Under the pieces are notes generated by a model. It was not told the origin of the DNA. It did not search any database and saw only the letters and a list, made by a program, of their open reading frames with translations. Shown in pieces: positions 3,111 to 58,308 of a stretch of DNA of 64,000 nt (the first letter of the stretch is position 1; every line of letters begins with the position of its first letter). A program made the translations under genes and the position numbers. The stretch comes from Escherichia coli (lineage in GTDB: Bacteria > Pseudomonadota > Gammaproteobacteria > Enterobacterales > Enterobacteriaceae): the NCBI RefSeq assembly GCF_003019035.1, contig NZ_CP027447.1; one strand, 5' to 3'.

Positions 3111-3830
3111 TTACAGGCCAATCGCCTCTTTTAAGCTTTTCAGATAACGGCGGCTGACCGGCACGGTTAAGCCATTACGCAAAATCAACTCGGCCTGACC
3201 GTTATCTTCCAGACGAATCTCCTGTAAATGCGCGAGGTTAACCAGATACTGACGATGGCAGCGCAGTAGTGGTGTACGACTCTCCAGGGTACGTAATGTC
3301 AGTTCGGTAAAGCCCTCTTTCCCTTCGTGACTGGTAACGTAGACACCGCTCATCCGACTGCTGACAAATGCCACATCTTTCATTTGCAGCAAATAAATCC
3401 GACTATGCCCCGTACAAGGGATAAATTTCAGCGCCTGTTGATTTTCCGGTAACAACGAAACATCCTGCTTGCTGCGCTCCAGACGCAATCGCGCCAGCGT
3501 TTTCTCCAGTCGCGCTTCATCAATTGGCTTCAGCAGATAATCAAAGGCATGTTCTTCAAAGGCTTTAATGGCGTATTCATCAAACGCGGTGAGAAAAACA
3601 ATATACGGACGATGTTCCGGGTCGAGCATCCCCACCATTTCCAGACCACTGATGCGCGGCATCTGGATATCGAGGAACAGCACATCCGGGCGCAGTTTAT
3701 GCACCGCGCCGATCCCTTCCACGGCGTTTGAACACTCACCAACGATTTCAATATCGCTCTGCTCCTGCAAAAATACGCGCAGGTTCTCCCGTGCTAACGG
3801 TTCATCATCGACAATTAAGACTTTAATCAT
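3111..3830 (-). CDS. btsR: LytTR-family response regulator BtsR (YehT), 239 aa
   Basis: Receiver domain [17 protein letters not shown]-terminal LytTR domain; ATGA overlap with upstream kinase gene. Confidence 0.9.
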
Positions 3831-5512
3831 GCCTCGTCCCTCCATGGTAGTCGTAACGTTATTCGGGTGTAACTATCAGGCTCACAGGCGACGCTTATCC
3901 CATAGTCATCGCCAAACCGTTCACGTAAACGCTTATCCACCAGATTCATCCCCAGCCCACTGGCATTGGTTACCGGTTGATACAAACCGGCATTGTCTTC
4001 GATCTCCAGCATCAAATGTTGCCCCTCACGTCGGGCGCTGATTGCCACTCGCCCTGTATCCAGCAGTTGTGATGTCCCATGTTTAATGGCGTTTTCCACT
4101 ATCGGTTGCAGGGTAAACGCGGGCAATTGCTGCTGGGATAATTCTTGCGGAATAGCAATGTTGACCTGCAACCGCGACTGGAAGCGCGCCTTTTCAATTT
4201 GCAGATAAGCGTTCACATGTTCAATTTCGTCGGCGAGAGTAACAAACTCCGAAGGCCGCTTTAAGTTTTTGCGGAAAAAAGTGGAAAGATACTGCACCAG
4301 CTGGCTGGCCTGTTCGCTGTCGCGGCGGATCACCGCTTTAATGGTGTTAAGCGCATTAAACAAAAAATGGGGATTCACCTGGGCGTGAAGCAGTTTGATC
4401 TCTGACTGGGTGAGCATCGCTTTTTGCCGCTCATATTGCCCGGCGAGGATCTGCGCCGAAAGCAGTTGCGCAATCCCCTCACCCAGCGTGCGATTGATTG
4501 AACTGAATAAACGGTTTTTGGCTTCATACAATTTGATGGTACCCATCACTCGCTGATTTTCACCACGCAACGGAATGACCAGCGTCGACCCCAGTTTGCA
4601 TTGCGGATGCAAAGAGCAACGGTAAGGCACTTCGTTGCCATCAGCGTAGACCACTTCACCGGTTTCAATCGCTTTTAAGGTGTAAGTCGAAGAAATCGGT
4701 TTGCCGGGTAAATGGTGGTCGTCACCAATTCCGGTAAAGGCCAGCAATTTCTCTCGATCGGTAATCGCGACTGCACCAATATCCAGCTCCTGATACAGCA
4801 CCTGTGCCACTTTCATGCTGTTCACTTCGTTAAACCCCTGACGCAAAATGCCTTCCGTCGAGGCCGCCACTTTCAGCGCAGTGGCAGAAAAAGCTGAAGT
4901 GTATTTTTCAAACATCGCGCGTTTATCGAGCAATATACGCATAAACAGTGCCGCGCCGACGGTATTGGTGACCATCATTGGCGCAGCAATATTACTCACC
5001 AGACGCACCGCATCTTCATAAGGTCGGGCGATCGCCAGGATGATCAACATTTGCACCATTTCAGCGACGAACGTAACGGCACCGGCGGTAATGGGGTTAA
5101 AGACTTTATCAGTGCGCCCGCGACGGATCAGGATGCTGTGTACCAGGCCGCCGAGCAATCCTTCAACGATGGTCGAGATCATGCAACTTAGCGCGGTCAT
5201 GCCCCCCATCGAATATCGATGTAACCCGCCGGTCAGACCAACCAGCCCACCGACGACCGGACCGCCGAGTAAGCCGCCCATTACCGCGCCTATCGCACGG
5301 GTATTGGCAATAGAATCGTCAATGTGCAACCCAAACCAGGTGCCCATGATGCAGAAGATGGAAAAGACGATGTAGCAGAGAAATTTATGCGGCAGACGAA
5401 CCGTGACCTGCATTAACGGTATGAATAATGGCGTTTTACTCATTAACCACGCAATGACTAAAAAAACGCACATCTGCTGAAGCAGCAGCAACACCAGATT
5501 AAAATCGTACAT
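3827..5512 (-). CDS. btsS: Sensor histidine kinase BtsS (YehU), LytS family, 561 aa
   Basis: Multi-TM N-terminus, GAF and HisKA_3/HATPase regions; ORF 3827..5527 trimmed to [10 protein letters not shown] start. Confidence 0.9.
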
Positions 5513-52240: not shown

Positions 52241-53179
52241 TTAACCCGCGAGACGCTGGTATTCTTTGGCAATTTCGCTCGCCAGAATGGCGTTGTTGAA
52301 CACCAGTTGGATGTTGGATTTCAGGCTGTCACCGCCAGTCAGTTCAGCAACACGAGCCAGCAGGAACGGTGTGCTTTCTTTACCAATAACGCCCTGCTCT
52401 TCGGCTTCGGCGACGGCTTGATCTATGGCTGCATTGATAGATTCCTCCGGCATCGCAAACTGCTCCGGGATCGGATTCGCCACTACCAGGCCGCCGTTCA
52501 AACCGGTTTGCCATTTCACTGCCATTGCACGAGCGATTTCCGTGGCACTATCAAGGCGAATGCTGACGTCAAACGGGCTGGTACGGCAGAAAAACGCAGG
52601 CAGCGCTTTTGTCTGATAGCCAATTAACGGCACACCGAAGGTTTCTAAATATTCTGTTGTTAATCCTAAATCGAGAATAGATTTTGCACCGGCACAAACA
52701 ACGGTGACATTAGTATTTGCCAGTTCTTGCAAATCGGCAGAAATATCGAAGGTATGTTCCGCCCCGCGATGCACACCACCAATTCCCCCGGTGGCAAATA
52801 CTTTAATTCCGGCAAGCGCCGCAATAATCATCGTTGAAGCCACAGTGGTTGCGCCATTTTTTCCGGCGGCAACGACAAAAGGTAAATCGCGACGACTAAC
52901 TTTGGTCACGTTATGCCCTTCGCGACCCAGCAATTCAATTTCTTCTTTGCTTAAACCCACTTTCATCACGCCGCCAATAATGGCGATAGTGGCAGGTACA
53001 GCGCCCTGTTTACGAATAGTTCCTTCAACTTCAATTGCGGTCTGGGCATTTTGTGGGAACGGCATCCCGTGAGAAATAATGGTCGATTCCAGCGCCACAA
53101 CCGGTTTTTTGTTTTTTAAAGCGTCCTGCACTTCCGGGGAAATTTGTAATAATTCAGGGGAAATTTTTAATTCAGACAT
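52241..53179 (-). CDS. psuG: Pseudouridine-5'-phosphate glycosidase PsuG (YeiN), 312 aa
   Basis: Indigoidine synthase A-like family; overlaps psuK by 13 nt. Confidence 0.9.
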   Translation of the reverse strand: MSELKISPELLQISPEVQDALKNKKPVVALESTIISHGMPFPQNAQTAIEVEGTIRKQGAVPATIAIIGGVMKVGLSKEEIELLGREGHNVTKVSRRDLPFVVAAGKNGATTVASTMIIAALAGIKVFATGGIGGVHRGAEHTFDISADLQELANTNVTVVCAGAKSILDLGLTTEYLETFGVPLIGYQTKALPAFFCRTSPFDVSIRLDSATEIARAMAVKWQTGLNGGLVVANPIPEQFAMPEESINAAIDQAVAEAEEQGVIGKESTPFLLARVAELTGGDSLKSNIQLVFNNAILASEIAKEYQRLAG

Positions 53180-54108
53180 TCTGCGTTCTCCACTAACGAT
53201 ATAACGTTGGCAATCGATAAATCGGGGTTATTGGTGTATTCACAGGAGAGCGCCATTGACGAACATCCCTGTGCGAAACGAACAGATTCGGCAAACGGCA
53301 TTCCGTCTACCCAACACGAAGCAAGTCCCGCCATCATGGCATCACCCGCTCCGGTAACATTAATGACATTGGTTTTGATCGGCGCAGACCAGCCACTTTC
53401 ACCGCTGATATCGCTGTAATAAACGCCATCGCCGCCCATGCTCAATACCAGTCGGTTCAGGCCATGTTGATGGAACCAGGCAGCAACTTTTGCCACATCT
53501 TCACGCCCTGACAGCGCAATCCCACTCAGGGTTTCCGCTTCAAGGCGGTTTGGCTTGAGAGTGTGGATTTGATTTAGACGGTCGCGCACTTTGACACATT
53601 TCCACGCAGAAACCGGATCGACAAATACGGGTACGTTGGCGGCATTATCCAGAATCCATGCCAGTGCCTCTTCACTGATATTACAGTCCGCGACAATGAC
53701 CTTTGCCCTCTGAATAAATTCACGATGCTGTGCGAGATATTCAGCTGTAATAGCGTTGCTAATATTCATGTCATTTATAGCAACCAGCATTTCACCGGTA
53801 TTATCGAGTAATGATAAATAGCTCGACGTATTTTCTCCCGGCACAATCAGGCATTTATCGACATAAACACCAGATTGATTGGTTTGCGTTAGCAACGATT
53901 GACCATAAAAATCACTGCCTACTGCGCTCAGTAGCCAGGCTTTATTCCCCAGCAACGCCAGGTTTTGTGCAATATTGCGCCCTACTCCACCAGGCGTAAA
54001 CTTTATTTTACCTGGATTTGAATCCGCATAATTTAATGATTCATGTGAATATCCGGCGACATCAATATTCGCCGAACCTATAATTACGACATAATCCTTT
54101 TCGCGCAT
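53167..54108 (-). CDS. psuK: Pseudouridine kinase PsuK (YeiC), PfkB family, 313 aa
   Basis: Ribokinase-like fold with GAGD motif (VTGAGDAMMAG). Confidence 0.9.
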   Translation of the reverse strand: MREKDYVVIIGSANIDVAGYSHESLNYADSNPGKIKFTPGGVGRNIAQNLALLGNKAWLLSAVGSDFYGQSLLTQTNQSGVYVDKCLIVPGENTSSYLSLLDNTGEMLVAINDMNISNAITAEYLAQHREFIQRAKVIVADCNISEEALAWILDNAANVPVFVDPVSAWKCVKVRDRLNQIHTLKPNRLEAETLSGIALSGREDVAKVAAWFHQHGLNRLVLSMGGDGVYYSDISGESGWSAPIKTNVINVTGAGDAMMAGLASCWVDGMPFAESVRFAQGCSSMALSCEYTNNPDLSIANVISLVENAECLN

Positions 54109-54175
54109 AGCACGTCCTCTGGTAAAAAATTACCAACCCTGTCAATCCACAAGAATATAGATACTGCAAAGACGG

Positions 54176-54211
54176 TTTAAACATGTGTTCATATTTAAAC
54201 ATGTGCTCATA
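54176..54211. repeat. Perfectly abutting tandem direct repeat, 2 x 18 bp (TTTAAACATGTG[T/C]TCATA), in the psuK promoter region
   Basis: Seen in sequence about 68-103 bp upstream of the psuK start codon; each unit contains an ACATGT palindrome. Confidence 0.45.
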
Positions 54212-54344
54212 GTATGCATGTTTTACGTAAAGTAAATTACCGCCAGAGAGGCAAAATGGGCAGATTTGAGCAGGCTCACAAAACGCGATTAAATGCCTGA
54301 ATTATAAAAACGGGGAATTTGTGACGGGAGGCACAGAACAGGAA

Positions 54345-54378
54345 CAATAAAAAAGGGCAGAAAATAATCTGCCCTTGA
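54345..54378 (-). terminator. Rho-independent terminator downstream of fruA (end of fruBKA operon)
   Basis: Hairpin AAGGGCAG-8nt-CTGCCCTT followed on the minus strand by UUUUUUAUU. Confidence 0.6.
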
Positions 54379-54531
54379 GGAAATAACCTTAGTGTTTGAT
54401 GAACATTTCAGGTTTCTACTGAAAGATAAAACCATTTAAATTCATAAAATTACATTCACAAACTGGTCATTCCCTTTGCGCGCATCAAATGTTACAGGGC
54501 AGGAAATTTCTGCCCTGGAACACACCTTTTA

Positions 54532-56223
54532 TTACGCTGCTTTTGCTACTGCGTCCACTTCCGGACGTTTCAGGAAGGCATAGGCCAGACCCGCCACCAG
54601 CGTACCGGCAATAATGGCTACCAGGTAACCCAATACCGGCGTAATCGCGCCAGGGATCAGCAGAACAAACAGACCACCGTGCGGTGCCATCAGTTTCGCA
54701 CCAATCGCCATTGAGATTGCGCCAGTCAGCGCCCCACCCACGATACAGCACGGCAGCACACGCATCGGATCACGGGCAGCAAACGGAATTGCACCTTCCG
54801 AAATAAAGCACAGTCCCAGTACCAGAGCAGCTTTGCCCCCTTCCTGCTGCGCCTTGTCGAATTTGCGACGCGCTACCATTGTTGCCAGCCCCATTGCCAG
54901 CGGTGGCACCATACCTGCCGCCATAATCGCCGCCATCGGGCCATAGGTTTGAGTACTCAGCAGACCCACACCGAACGCGTACGCTGCTTTGTTTACCGGA
55001 CCGCCCATGTCAGTACACATCATGCCACCGAGGATCGCCCCCAGCAGAACCGCATTCGCAGTCCCCATGGTCTGCAGCCAGTGAGTCAACCCTTCGAGAA
55101 TGCCAGCAACCGGTTTACCGATCAGGTAGATCATCGCCAGACCGACCACCAGACTGGAAATTAGCGGAATGATCAGAATCGGTTTCAGCGCCTCCATACT
55201 CTGTGGCAGTTTCAATTGCGTACTGATTAACTTCGCAATGTAACCAGCCAGGAAGCCCGCAATAATACCGCCAATGAAGCCAGAACCGGTGCTGACCGCC
55301 AGCATACCGCCAATCAGACCCGGCGTGAGACCCGGACGATCGGCAATGGAAAAGGCAATATAACCTGCCAGTACCGGCACCATCAACGCAAAGGCTGAAC
55401 CACCACCAATCTGCATCAGCGCCGCAGCCAACGTACCCGGCTCTTTAAACGCTTCGATACCAAAAGCAAAAGAAAGCGCGATACACAGACCACCTGCAAC
55501 GACCATCGGCAGCATGTAAGAGACGCCCGTCAGCAAGTGACGGTAAGCGCCTGCACTCTCTTTCTTACCTTCAGTGGTCGCTGTTTGAGCTTTGCCCGCT
55601 GGTTCATACGGCGTTGCTTCAGCAACCGCTTTATCCAGTTCCTGCGCAGTTTTCTTCAGCGCCAGACCGGTAGAGGTGCGATACATCGGTTTACCAGCAA
55701 ATTTCGCCAGATCCACTTCGATATCTGCCGCCACAATCACCAGATCCGCTGCGGCGACTTCTTCAGGGGTGATTGCATTACCCGCGCCAACAGAACCACG
55801 GGTTTCAACTTTCACCCACCAGCCACGTTTTTTCGCTTCGGTTTCAATGGCTTCAGCCGCCATAAAGGTGTGTGCTACGCCAGTCGGGCAAGCAGTCACC
55901 GCAACTACGCGTTTCGGACCGCTGGCGGCAACCGGTGCTGTCGCAGCGACCGGCGCAGTGTAAGGTTTCGCATGGCCTTTGGCTTCACTCAGGAACAGCT
56001 CAGGGTGCGCAACTGCCCGGGAAATATCGCCCAGCCAGACATTTTTACCGTTCAGCGCGCTGTCATTCGGGATGGAATCACCGAGAACAATCGCCATTTC
56101 TGCGTCGTTCGGATTGTCGATGATTTCCAGTTTTGCTTTTCGCGCCGCCGCGCCCAGCAGGGTCTTCGCCATATAGGCGCGTGCCTGACCGAGATTAGCG
56201 TCAATAATCAGCAGCGTTTTCAT
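54532..56223 (-). CDS. fruA: PTS fructose-specific EIIB'BC component FruA, 563 aa
   Basis: Duplicated IIB domains and IIC membrane domain; operon fruBKA. Confidence 0.93.
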   Translation of the reverse strand: MKTLLIIDANLGQARAYMAKTLLGAAARKAKLEIIDNPNDAEMAIVLGDSIPNDSALNGKNVWLGDISRAVAHPELFLSEAKGHAKPYTAPVAATAPVAASGPKRVVAVTACPTGVAHTFMAAEAIETEAKKRGWWVKVETRGSVGAGNAITPEEVAAADLVIVAADIEVDLAKFAGKPMYRTSTGLALKKTAQELDKAVAEATPYEPAGKAQTATTEGKKESAGAYRHLLTGVSYMLPMVVAGGLCIALSFAFGIEAFKEPGTLAAALMQIGGGSAFALMVPVLAGYIAFSIADRPGLTPGLIGGMLAVSTGSGFIGGIIAGFLAGYIAKLISTQLKLPQSMEALKPILIIPLISSLVVGLAMIYLIGKPVAGILEGLTHWLQTMGTANAVLLGAILGGMMCTDMGGPVNKAAYAFGVGLLSTQTYGPMAAIMAAGMVPPLAMGLATMVARRKFDKAQQEGGKAALVLGLCFISEGAIPFAARDPMRVLPCCIVGGALTGAISMAIGAKLMAPHGGLFVLLIPGAITPVLGYLVAIIAGTLVAGLAYAFLKRPEVDAVAKAA

Positions 56224-56239: not shown

Positions 56240-57178
56240 TCAGTTAAAAGGTTGTAAGTCGACGCGCGCCATCATTGCGGCCAACTGCGGACGATCGGTA
56301 ATACCCACATTGCTTTGACTTACCGCCAGGGCTGCAACAGCTGTCGCCAGACGCAGTGTGTGTTCACTGGATTCACGCATCAGCAAGCCATAAATCAGGC
56401 CACCAACCATAGAATCCCCTGCGCCAACGGTGCTTACGACATCGACTGACGGTGGTTTGGCGATCCATTCGCCGGAGGCATTAACCCAAAGCGCGCCTTC
56501 GGCACCCAGTGAAATAACGACATGCGCGATACCCTGTTCACGCAGCGCATGCGCAGCTTCAATAACATCTTTCATTTCAGGCAGTTTACGGCCCGCCCAG
56601 ATTTCCAGCTCGCGGCGGTTAGGTTTCACCAGCCACGGTGCCGCTTTCAAACCTGCTACTAACGCTTCACGGCTACTATCAAAGATAATGCAAGGACACT
56701 GACTACGCAGGCGAGTCATCCAGTCGGTGAACGCTTCCGGGCTGACGCCTGACGGTAAGCTTCCGCTGACACAGACCATATCGAACTGACCGAGCCAGCT
56801 CAGAGAATCAGTCACAAAGCGTTCCCAGTCGGCGGGGGTGACTTCAAAACCCGAGAAGTTGAAGTCGGTCACTTCGCCGTCTTTTTCCGTCAGCTTAACG
56901 TTAATTCGGGTGCGCCCCTGTACAACCTGGAAACGGTTGGCAATGCCCAGCTCGCTGAACAGTTGCTGAAAACCATCCTGATTGTCTTTACCCAGGAAGC
57001 CGCCAACGGTGACATCAATTCCCAGGTCTTTTAATACTTTGGCCACGTTGATGCCTTTACCCGCCGCATGCAGACCGGTGGTTTTCACCAGGTTCACTTC
57101 GCCGCGTTCAATTTCCGGGCAGAAACCAACAAGGTCATAAGCCGGATTAAGGGTGATCGTAGCAACACGTCTGCTCAT
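56240..57178 (-). CDS. fruK: 1-phosphofructokinase FruK, 312 aa
   Basis: PfkB family; between fruB and fruA. Confidence 0.93.
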   Translation of the reverse strand: MSRRVATITLNPAYDLVGFCPEIERGEVNLVKTTGLHAAGKGINVAKVLKDLGIDVTVGGFLGKDNQDGFQQLFSELGIANRFQVVQGRTRINVKLTEKDGEVTDFNFSGFEVTPADWERFVTDSLSWLGQFDMVCVSGSLPSGVSPEAFTDWMTRLRSQCPCIIFDSSREALVAGLKAAPWLVKPNRRELEIWAGRKLPEMKDVIEAAHALREQGIAHVVISLGAEGALWVNASGEWIAKPPSVDVVSTVGAGDSMVGGLIYGLLMRESSEHTLRLATAVAALAVSQSNVGITDRPQLAAMMARVDLQPFN

Positions 57179-58308
57179 TATGCGCCCTCCCCAAGACCAG
57201 CAGCGATAGCGTCGCCAATGGCTTTCAGCGCCTGTTCAGCATCTGCACCCTGGGCGGTAAAGCGTAGGCGATGACCTTTCTTAACGCCAAGTGCCACAAC
57301 TTTCATCAGACTACGTCCGTTTGCCGGTTTGCCGGTGCCATCAAGGTTTGTCACGGTAATATCACTGTTAAATTGTTTAATGGTATTGACCAGCATGGTA
57401 CCTGGACGAGCATGCAGGCCGTGTTCATTGCGCACCACAAACTCCGCGCTTAACACGTCGTCGGTCGGCGCATCATCGCTGGTCAGCAGCGCCAGCAACG
57501 TTGCAGCATCCGCTTTCAGCAAGCGGTCAGCTTTATTATCGAGCAACAAATCAGCGAGACGCTTAAGAACCGCGATGGGCTGATCGTCATTCATCGCCAC
57601 ACTCACCAGCATGGCTGCCGTTTCGCCGTCCACATCAAAAGCATTTGCCGCACGGCTTACCGCAATCGCGCTACGCAAATTGCCTTCAGCGCTATCGCTC
57701 AGCCAGATGCCCTGTCCGAGGTTCAGCGGTTGTTCATTGATGGCTTTAGTGACGAAGGTGGCGTCAACTGCCCCTGCTTCTTTCAGACGCGCAGCGTTAA
57801 TCGCCTGAAGCGTCAGCAGATCGCTGGCGACAATATCCAGCGTCAGCATTTCGTTATCGAGCTTCAGCTGCTCACTCTGCTTTTCGCCCATCAGCAATGC
57901 GCGAAGTTCTTCTGCTGTCGTTGCTGACTTCAGCTGTTCAGCAACGGAATCATCGCTTAGTACGTGGGTCAGCTGGCGTAACAGACCCAGATGTTCATCC
58001 GAGCTGGCAGCAATACCGATCGCCACGTACGCTACCTGGCCGTCACCCCAGGTGACGCCTTCCGGGAACTGAAATACCTGAACGCCGGTTTTCAGCACCT
58101 GATCGCGGGTGTCGGTAGTGCCGTGTGGAATAGCAATACCATTGCCGAGGAACGTAGAGGTTTGCTGTTCGCGCGCCAGCATGCCATTGACGTAGCCTTC
58201 AGCTACATTACCGGCCTGCACCAGCGCCGCAGCGACCTGGCGAATCGCCTCTTCTTTGTCTCCGGCCTTTTCGCCCGGATGGATGTCCTGTACGGATAAC
58301 TGGAACAT
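57178..58308 (-). CDS. fruB: PTS fructose-specific EIIA-M-FPr fusion protein FruB, 376 aa
   Basis: N-terminal EIIA(Fru), C-terminal HPr-like domain; 1-nt overlap with fruK. Confidence 0.93.

Follow-up and report, generated by a model that had tools for sequence, protein, structure and literature searches.

Two related hairpins downstream of fruA in Escherichia coli: the fruBKA terminator and an upstream copy, probably kept as an RNA stem-loop

Introduction

The two hairpins that lie between fruA and psuK in Escherichia coli can be compared with several described types of 3' stem-loop, of which the intrinsic terminator of E. coli is the most familiar. The distal hairpin (H2) corresponds to it in structure and 3' end, with a GC-rich stem of 9 bp, a short loop, six U residues and a 3' end that is found in vivo, whereas the proximal hairpin (H1) has the stem-loop but neither a U-run nor a mapped 3' end, and is not a member of this class. 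Tandem terminators at operon ends are a further point of comparison. Here, too, two terminator-type hairpins stand in series after the last gene of an operon, but only the second is competent whereas the first is degenerate, and the pair arose by duplication of one hairpin around inserted DNA.

REP/BIME elements can act as 3' untranslated stabilisers, as exemplified by the REP of malE-malF. H1 has their position, as a hairpin between stop codon and terminator, and the presumed capacity to block exonucleases, and REP-like hairpins occur at its place both in a second Escherichia allele (allele B, see below) and in several of eight loci of other genera. The difference is that H1 and H2 are single-copy, do not follow the REP consensus and derive from a local terminator, not from a dispersed repeat. 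A BLAST search with H1 found at most two places per genome and not the many copies expected of a REP sequence; two places would result if the palindrome at a single site is matched on either strand, which is how we read them.

A third comparison is with stable stem-loops that lack U-rich 3' sequence and act in E. coli as a shield of transcripts against PNPase and RNase II (Dar and Sorek 2018, PMC6061677). H1 resembles the members of this class in being a stable stem-loop without a U-rich tract, positioned just past a stop codon and upstream of untranslated RNA. The class is defined by a steady-state 3' end just past the stem on Rho-terminated transcripts, whereas for H1 no such end is reported there. 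Furthermore, an intrinsic terminator is present 118 nt beyond H1, which thus has only the structural half of the definition.

The analysis described here concerns a window of E. coli DNA, by which we mean the whole stretch of 64,000 nucleotides (64 kb) that was analysed, and follows up a first-pass annotation in which the two hairpins had been pointed out. The 3' end at H2 was already known from a public dataset; what is new is the history of the locus, in which the two hairpins are paralogues of one Enterobacteriaceae terminator.

Layout of the fruA-psuK region

In a stretch of 551 bases around the hairpins, the window matches E. coli SCU-301 with 100% identity and some 4,400 further complete genomes with 95-99% identity. 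The RefSeq annotation of identical or near-identical E. coli records names the flanking genes fruA and psuK. The positions of the features are collected in Table 1.

Table 1 Features of the fruBKA-psuK region, in window coordinates
Feature	Position	Strand	Remarks
fruB	57178-58308	minus	
fruK	56240-57178	minus	
fruA coding sequence	54532-56223	minus	563 aa, last gene of fruBKA; from the ORF list and the RefSeq annotation of near-identical E. coli records
fruA TAA stop	54534-54532	minus	
fruA-psuK intergenic region	54109-54531		423 bp
H1, proximal hairpin	54495-54517	minus	without U-run; from the fold and the match to model R1
Spacer between H1 and H2	54377-54494	minus	118 nt, AT-rich
H2, stem-loop of the fruBKA intrinsic terminator	54353-54376	minus	from the terminator scan, alignment A2 and model R1
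U-run (T6) of H2	54354-54349	minus	Term-seq 3' end at window 54349
psuK	53167-54108	minus	followed by psuG and psuT

Read in the sense of fruA, H1 is CAGGGCAG-AAATTTC-CTGCCCTG, with a stem of 8 bp (6 G-C pairs) and a loop of 7 nt. The hairpin begins 14 nt past the fruA TAA, and its GGGCAG is 19 nt from the T of this codon. The GC-rich stem-loop expected of an intrinsic terminator is present, but the U-run is not: the sequence 3' of H1 is TAACATTTGATG, and the stem is directly followed by UAACAUUUGAUG. Variable flanking pairs allow H1 to be extended to 54490-54522. H2 is AAGGGCAGA-TTATTT-TCTGCCCTT, with a stem of 9 bp (5 G-C pairs) and a loop of 6 nt. Its GC-rich, short-looped stem ends in GCCC followed by TTTTTTATT, an immediate U-run, and the first two T's of the T6 run double as the last two bases of the stem.

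According to the first-pass annotation, the locus contained two hairpins of the type GGGCAG-N8-CTGCCC, the second with a U-run and the first without. Both hairpins exist, and the sequences 3' of H1 and H2 agree with what was said about the U-runs. The coordinates given were 1-2 nt off, and the spacing applies to H2 only, as the GGGCAG and CTGCCC arms are N7 apart in H1 and N8 apart in H2.

Structure prediction, which had been proposed as a check, gave for both hairpins a fold that is far more stable than that of shuffled sequences (z about -5). The fold energy of H1 with its flanking pairs is -19.3 kcal/mol (z -5.0), and that of H2 is -17.3 kcal/mol (z -5.5). When the full 3'UTR is folded, the pair probabilities in H1 are at least 0.95. 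The fold of the plus strand at H1 is about as stable, at -20 kcal/mol.

The likeness of the two hairpins is well beyond what is expected by chance. Arms of the type GGGCAG-N-CTGCCC were counted in the 64-kb window, in the fetched loci and by BLAST of the H1 segment. With a distance of N4-12 between the arms, exactly two occurrences are present in the window against 0.04 expected, and none of 100 shuffles reached two; the 8-mer AGGGCAGA alone is not enriched in the window (3 found, 1.27 expected). Local alignment of H1 and H2 with their flanks gave a score of 28; shuffled sequences averaged 11.7 and never exceeded 21. Only some 25 nt are similar, with no relationship between the sequences to either side.

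Termination at the distal hairpin

H2, by its structure a terminator of the intrinsic type, is the working terminator of fruBKA and is used in vivo, as is evident from a terminator scan in combination with a published Term-seq 3' end of strain K-12. In the scan, H2 was the sole match between fruA and the psuK promoter. The 3' end, at K-12 position 2259536 on the minus strand, is printed as ...CTGCCCTTTTTT, i.e. ...CAAGGGCAGATTATTTTCTGCCCTTTTTT, with the end directly before ATTG (Adams et al. 2021, PMC7815308). When checked on the K-12 locus, this position coincides with the final T in the T6 run of H2, which bears out the earlier proposal that the second hairpin is the operon terminator. The end has a single listing in the dataset, on a tab that, being third in the file, corresponds to M63 glucose, is labelled 'orphan' and has a substantial Term-seq score (Adams et al. 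2021, PMC7815308).

Around H1 (K-12 2259600-2259799), none of three growth conditions has a listed 3' end, in a set of curated dominant ends from which a minor end could escape (Adams et al. 2021, PMC7815308). Over K-12 2259300-2259799, both strands taken together, the same lists contain no 3' end except that at H2 (Adams et al. 2021, PMC7815308). TERMITe has no entry for the fruA-psuK locus. From the missing U-run of H1 and from the Term-seq lists, which contain no 3' end there, we infer that the polymerase continues through the spacer to H2. The first-pass annotation had held that its reading would be refuted if termination occurred only at the distal hairpin and the proximal one had neither function nor conservation. 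The former is what is observed; the latter is not, as H1 is conserved (see below).

A Rho termination region was reported at K-12 2259533 on the minus strand, corresponding to about window 54346, with a score of 3.5 that is based on 800-nt windows and low counts (Adams et al. 2021, PMC7815308). The numbers of reads upstream and downstream of this position were 44 and 28 in untreated cells and 43 and 97 with bicyclomycin (Adams et al. 2021, PMC7815308), i.e. the reads on the psuK side go up under Rho inhibition. In view of this region, termination at H2 may not be purely intrinsic. The signal may stem either from read-through beyond H2 or from Rho acting on transcripts that start at the psuK promoter.

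Ancestry of the hairpins

For comparison with other genera, 80 loci with close relatives of FruA were fetched, one genome per species, and the sequence after the stop codon was examined. Outside Escherichia, 28 loci carry one terminator, consisting of GGGCAG...CTGCCC and a T-run, that starts 19-31 nt past the fruA stop. These loci belong to Citrobacter, the Klebsiella oxytoca group, several Enterobacter, Leclercia, Buttiauxella, Pluralibacter and Pseudescherichia, and the form of the terminator is (A/G)GGGCAGAG-ATTT-CTCTGCCC-T6-8. Salmonella diarizonae and one Leclercia locus (L055) have the same stem minus one G-C pair (GGCAGAG...CTCTGCC), and the remaining lineages possess related GGGC...GCCC stems or another terminator. 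In 27 of the outgroup hairpins taken together, 99.2% of the cells are paired, and the terminator stem of Pseudescherichia has undergone a double compensatory change from AG/CT to CC/GG. Both observations imply that the fruA terminator hairpin is conserved as a structure.

The order fruA-psuK is shared by 13 loci outside Escherichia. The intergenic region of 12 of these spans about 278-328 bp and that of Entomohabitans (L071) about 618 bp; in Escherichia this region measures about 411-457 bp. In an alignment of these regions (A2), H2 matches the single outgroup terminator column for column, and the downstream flank is homologous up to psuK. The extra DNA of Escherichia, about 120-190 nt, is located entirely between the fruA stop and H2, with H1 as its first element. 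The distance of 19 nt between the stop codon and the GGGCAG of H1 equals that in Citrobacter and falls inside the outgroup range of 19-31 nt. From this spacing and the alignment of H2, it follows that H1 keeps the ancestral position and H2 the ancestral downstream flank.

A covariance model (R1), with the profile AGGGCAGAG-N4-CUCUGCCCU, was built from the 27 outgroup hairpins only and used for scanning the whole window with the filters off. H2 was the top match, with 26.4 bits (E 6e-4), and H1 came second, with 19.8-20.1 bits (E about 0.02), the next match in the 64 kb reaching 10.8 bits. The loop of H1 moreover keeps the ancestral ATTT centre. These matches and the loop centre mark both H1 and H2 as copies of the ancestral fruA terminator hairpin. 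The sequence comparisons thus point clearly to a common descent of the two hairpins from one old enterobacterial fruA terminator, with an Escherichia-specific insertion between them. The duplication that had been suspected from the likeness of the hairpins is borne out by position, model matches and alignment alike.

The spacer and the route of duplication

The spacer is found in 4230 of 5426 E. coli genomes, at 4231 places, with a single genome having it more than once. It is absent from all syntenic outgroups and has no match in the 80 loci of other genera, and its fold, taken alone, is not significant (z -1.4). The low copy number and the insignificant fold argue against membership of a MITE or REP family, and together with the lack of matches in other genera led us to reject the spacer as a mobile element of such a family. 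A duplicated unit larger than the hairpin was also considered. Local alignments of the spacer with the region after H2 and with the 3' end of fruA scored at the shuffle mean (p about 0.46), and gave no evidence for such a unit. The duplication may have come about through tandem duplication of a larger unit followed by decay, through illegitimate recombination with fru DNA that entered the cell, or through an inserted element that left a scar.

A protein-coding role of the region is not supported. A 48-aa ORF at 54289-54435 on the minus strand passes through the terminator, and indels between Escherichia lineages argue against its being coding; the same lineage comparison revealed no conserved ORF in the spacer. 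In E. coli ETEC4088, PGAP annotates a 48-aa 'hypothetical protein' (WP_001300063.1) across H2 and opposite to fruA (positions 1662-1808 of locus L002, about window 54293-54439, plus strand). The ORF list of the window contains no such ORF, and the indels between lineages argue that this protein is spurious.

A second Escherichia allele

Some 78% of the complete E. coli genomes have the intergenic region of the window type. A second, strongly diverged type, allele B, is present in 1194 of 5426 (22%) and is common to E. coli and Escherichia albertii (loci L003 and L007). In genomes with allele B, PsuK is only 88.5% identical and the C-terminus of FruA is different. The segment looks like an introgressed or anciently polymorphic one.

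In E. albertii, the counterparts of the two hairpins are H1' (GGGGCAGAGATATCTCTTCCCC) and H2' (GGGCAGAGACATCTCTGCCC), and the ancestral GGGCAGAG arm is still present in both. The proximal hairpin, TCATCATCGGGGCAGAGATATCTCTTCCCCGATGATGA, has an outer stem of 12 bp and no U-run, while the distal one has the form GGGCAGAG-ACAT-CTCTGCCC-T5. Fold energies of the proximal hairpin of allele B are -24 to -30 kcal/mol in two examples. Both Escherichia alleles keep a hairpin of -20 to -30 kcal/mol at the place of H1, in allele B by way of a different outer stem. Between the hairpins, allele B contains a REP/BIME-type element with up to 11 matches per genome. A TGATGA.CGCAAA block just 3' of H1 is common to both alleles. 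Since the same layout of two hairpins is found in allele B and E. albertii, the duplication must be older than the split of these Escherichia lineages.

Constraint on the proximal hairpin

Constraint was assessed on 10 Escherichia sequences of the common allele, which are related and not independent. The set includes two deep lineages that differ from the window at 28 of 143 and 49 of 143 sites of the 3'UTR outside the stems. Variable columns number 2 of 16 in the H1 stem and 1 of 18 in the H2 stem, as compared to 67 of 143 in the rest of the 3'UTR, the loops being variable at 5 of 7 (H1) and 3 of 6 (H2) columns. In a Fisher test against the remaining 3'UTR, p is 0.007 for the H1 stem and 0.0004 for the H2 stem. 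In the two deep lineages the H1 stem shows no difference at all (0 of 16), against the 28 and 49 differences found elsewhere. On the evidence of these 10 related, non-independent sequences, the H1 stem is constrained like that of H2, as would be expected under purifying selection.

Two natural variants affect the H1 stem. A C>T change in K-12 and strain 167 gives a G-U pair in the sense RNA. In strain ERL04-3476, a T>C change turns the second pair of the sense RNA into an A.C mismatch, and only the antisense RNA would have a G-U pair there. Since the K-12 variant favours the sense strand and the ERL04-3476 variant the antisense strand, the variants do not fix which strand matters. A further natural variant is a deletion in Escherichia sp. 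MOD1-EC7003 (positions 3520-3560 of locus L005), which begins halfway through the spacer and reaches into psuG. H2 and psuK are missing there, together with the distal spacer and about 50 codons at the start of psuG, and H1 is intact.

Hairpins at the same place are also found elsewhere. In eight loci belonging to six other genera, the fruA stop and the terminator are separated by an unrelated hairpin that lacks a U-run and has a fold energy of -11 to -21 kcal/mol; in several of these loci (e.g. Lelliottia and Huaxiibacter) the hairpin is REP-like. These loci are L013, L028-L030, L038, L056, L059 and L067, from Pseudenterobacter, Huaxiibacter, Lelliottia, Buttiauxella brennerae, Yokenella and Trabulsiella. 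As their hairpins are unrelated, the layout of a stop codon, a stable U-less hairpin and a terminator has arisen repeatedly at fruA.

Proposed role of the proximal hairpin and alternative explanations

The explanation that we consider probable on the whole, if far from certain, combines H2 as the terminator, a duplication of the hairpin in Escherichia, and the retention of H1 as a protective stem-loop. The polymerase would transcribe the GC-rich stem of H2 and let the transcript go in the U-run, H2 itself probably being inherited from a common ancestor of many Enterobacteriaceae. In an ancestor of Escherichia, the terminator hairpin would have been duplicated around new DNA, which amounts to some 120 nt in the common allele, whereas in allele B it comprises the REP/BIME element and has a length of about 150 nt. 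The upstream copy, H1, would have stayed beside the stop codon without a U-run, with the polymerase passing on to H2, and would have been retained by selection as an RNA stem-loop. [quoted passage not shown] By analogy with the stabilising stem-loops discussed above, H1 is most likely a U-less protective stem-loop or a backup barrier. Since the H2 hairpin already protects the terminated transcript, H1 would be needed only upon cleavage of the spacer.

The main rival to this protective role sees in H1 a relic that the duplication left behind without a function, a dead terminator without U-run that persists either because too little time has elapsed or because palindromes resist change. The lack of a mapped 3' end at H1 fits such a relic, as does the A.C mismatch that is tolerated in the ERL04-3476 lineage, and H2 alone is enough in most genera: among 69 loci whose terminator could be scored, 57 have no stable hairpin upstream of it. 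A mere remnant, however, would not be expected to have a stem that is invariant in lineages with 20-34% differences in the 3'UTR (the 28 and 49 of 143 sites mentioned above) while loop and flanks vary freely. Nor is it easily reconciled with allele B, where the hairpin was rebuilt by a new 12-bp outer stem while the inner core decayed, or with the independent gain of U-less hairpins at this place in other genera. We therefore regard a relic as unlikely, though worth keeping in mind.

Alternatively, H1 could be a weak or conditional terminator, acting either on sense transcripts in a non-canonical, factor-assisted way or on antisense transcripts that enter fruA from the intergenic region. Its descent from a real terminator would agree with such a function. 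For the antisense direction, it can be added that TTTTATTA is found on the plus strand 4 nt past the extended stem, that the plus-strand fold is equally stable at -20 kcal/mol, and that the ERL04 variant pairs only in antisense RNA. Nevertheless, neither strand has a U-run directly past the H1 stem, H1 was missed by the terminator scan, and K-12 2259300-2259799 has no listed 3' end on either strand except that of H2. The spacer also lacks a promoter-like site on its plus strand. Such termination at H1 can be given only a small chance.

It can also be envisaged that the arms of the two hairpins have been kept identical since they cooperate, a notion that we regard as very improbable. The 3' arm of H1 could then compete with the 5' arm of H2, or the hairpins could form the ends of a stable 3'UTR RNA of about 165 nt. 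If true, cooperating arms would link the use of fructose and pseudouridine at a repeated target of adaptation to the mouse gut. The corresponding explanations, of equally slight probability, are that pairing between the arms of H1 and H2 serves as a switch for read-through from fruBKA into psuKGT, or that H1, spacer and H2 are released together as a 3'UTR-derived sRNA. The arms of H1 and H2 are indeed 100% complementary over 10 nt, and the tail of H2, with its substantial Term-seq score, resembles a typical sRNA 3' end. The energetics of a switch are nevertheless unfavourable. The local hairpins both form with a probability of about 1, and even when the 5' arm of H1 is blocked, cross-pairing comes out 6.6 kcal/mol less favourable than local folding of H2 (-35.6 vs -42.2 kcal/mol), for which reason the cross-pairing switch was rejected. 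With respect to an sRNA, the spacer is nearly free to evolve (the 67 of 143 variable columns, as well as indels) and has no significant fold, while in allele B most of it is swapped for a REP/BIME element. There is no Rfam match either, a permissive scan of 53900-54750 yielding only sub-threshold chance matches, none of which came near the gathering score.

The idea of the first-pass annotation that the two hairpins share a binding protein, with GGGCAG-N7/8-CTGCCC as a double-stranded DNA palindrome that is bound by one dimeric protein at two sites, is hardly credible: two copies of the same half-sites do occur, 141 nt apart, but the spacing of the arms (N7 vs N8) and the loops vary, outgroups alter both arms jointly and so preserve the pairing and not the sequence, the palindrome is broken in K-12, the core decays in allele B with the hairpin kept, and the arrangement is unlike that of the Cra operator, which is upstream of fruB. 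The consensus of the Cra operator is of the GCTGAA-N-TTCAGC type.

Neighbouring features

Some observations were made on the sequences around the hairpins. A candidate psuK promoter is present on the minus strand at 54209-54236, with TTTACT as -35 (54236-54231) and TACTAT as -10 (54214-54209) separated by 16 nt, and both elements are conserved across genera in alignment A2. In mouse-gut evolution, the recurrent psuK/fruA mutation is one promoter SNP and not a change in a hairpin. After conversion of the old K-12 coordinates, this SNP is located at window 54234, downstream of H2, and turns the -35 into TTGACT, which is a promoter-up change. At 54176-54211, a tandem 18-bp direct repeat, two copies of TTTAAACATGTG(T/C)TCATA, extends over the -10 as well as the 5' end of the psuK transcript. 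It is strongly conserved from Escherichia to Kosakonia (alignment A2) and is probably an operator of a psuKGT regulator.

At the other end of the operon, a strong Term-seq 3' end is listed at K-12 2263539 on the minus strand, about window 58352, in all three conditions, with an intrinsic-terminator score of 9.6 and a Rho score of 0.26 (Adams et al. 2021, PMC7815308). This position is 44 nt upstream of the fruB ATG (58308). The end follows GCCAGGTTGGCGCTTTTTTT and is located between two palindromes of the fruB leader that resemble Cra operators, which suggests a leader terminator or attenuator in fruBKA.

Significance

The 3' end of fruBKA can now be placed at window 54349, cleanly apart from the psuK promoter downstream of it. 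The view of termination or of the function of the fru operon is not changed by these findings; the hairpins are ordinary operon punctuation, and the result is neat but minor. It does carry a caution, namely that hairpins of similar sequence need not mean a shared binding protein. Furthermore, the locus offers a clear, datable case in which a terminator hairpin was duplicated and one copy, though without a U-run, was kept by selection, and it is as such useful for understanding the origins of 3'UTRs and of protective stem-loops.
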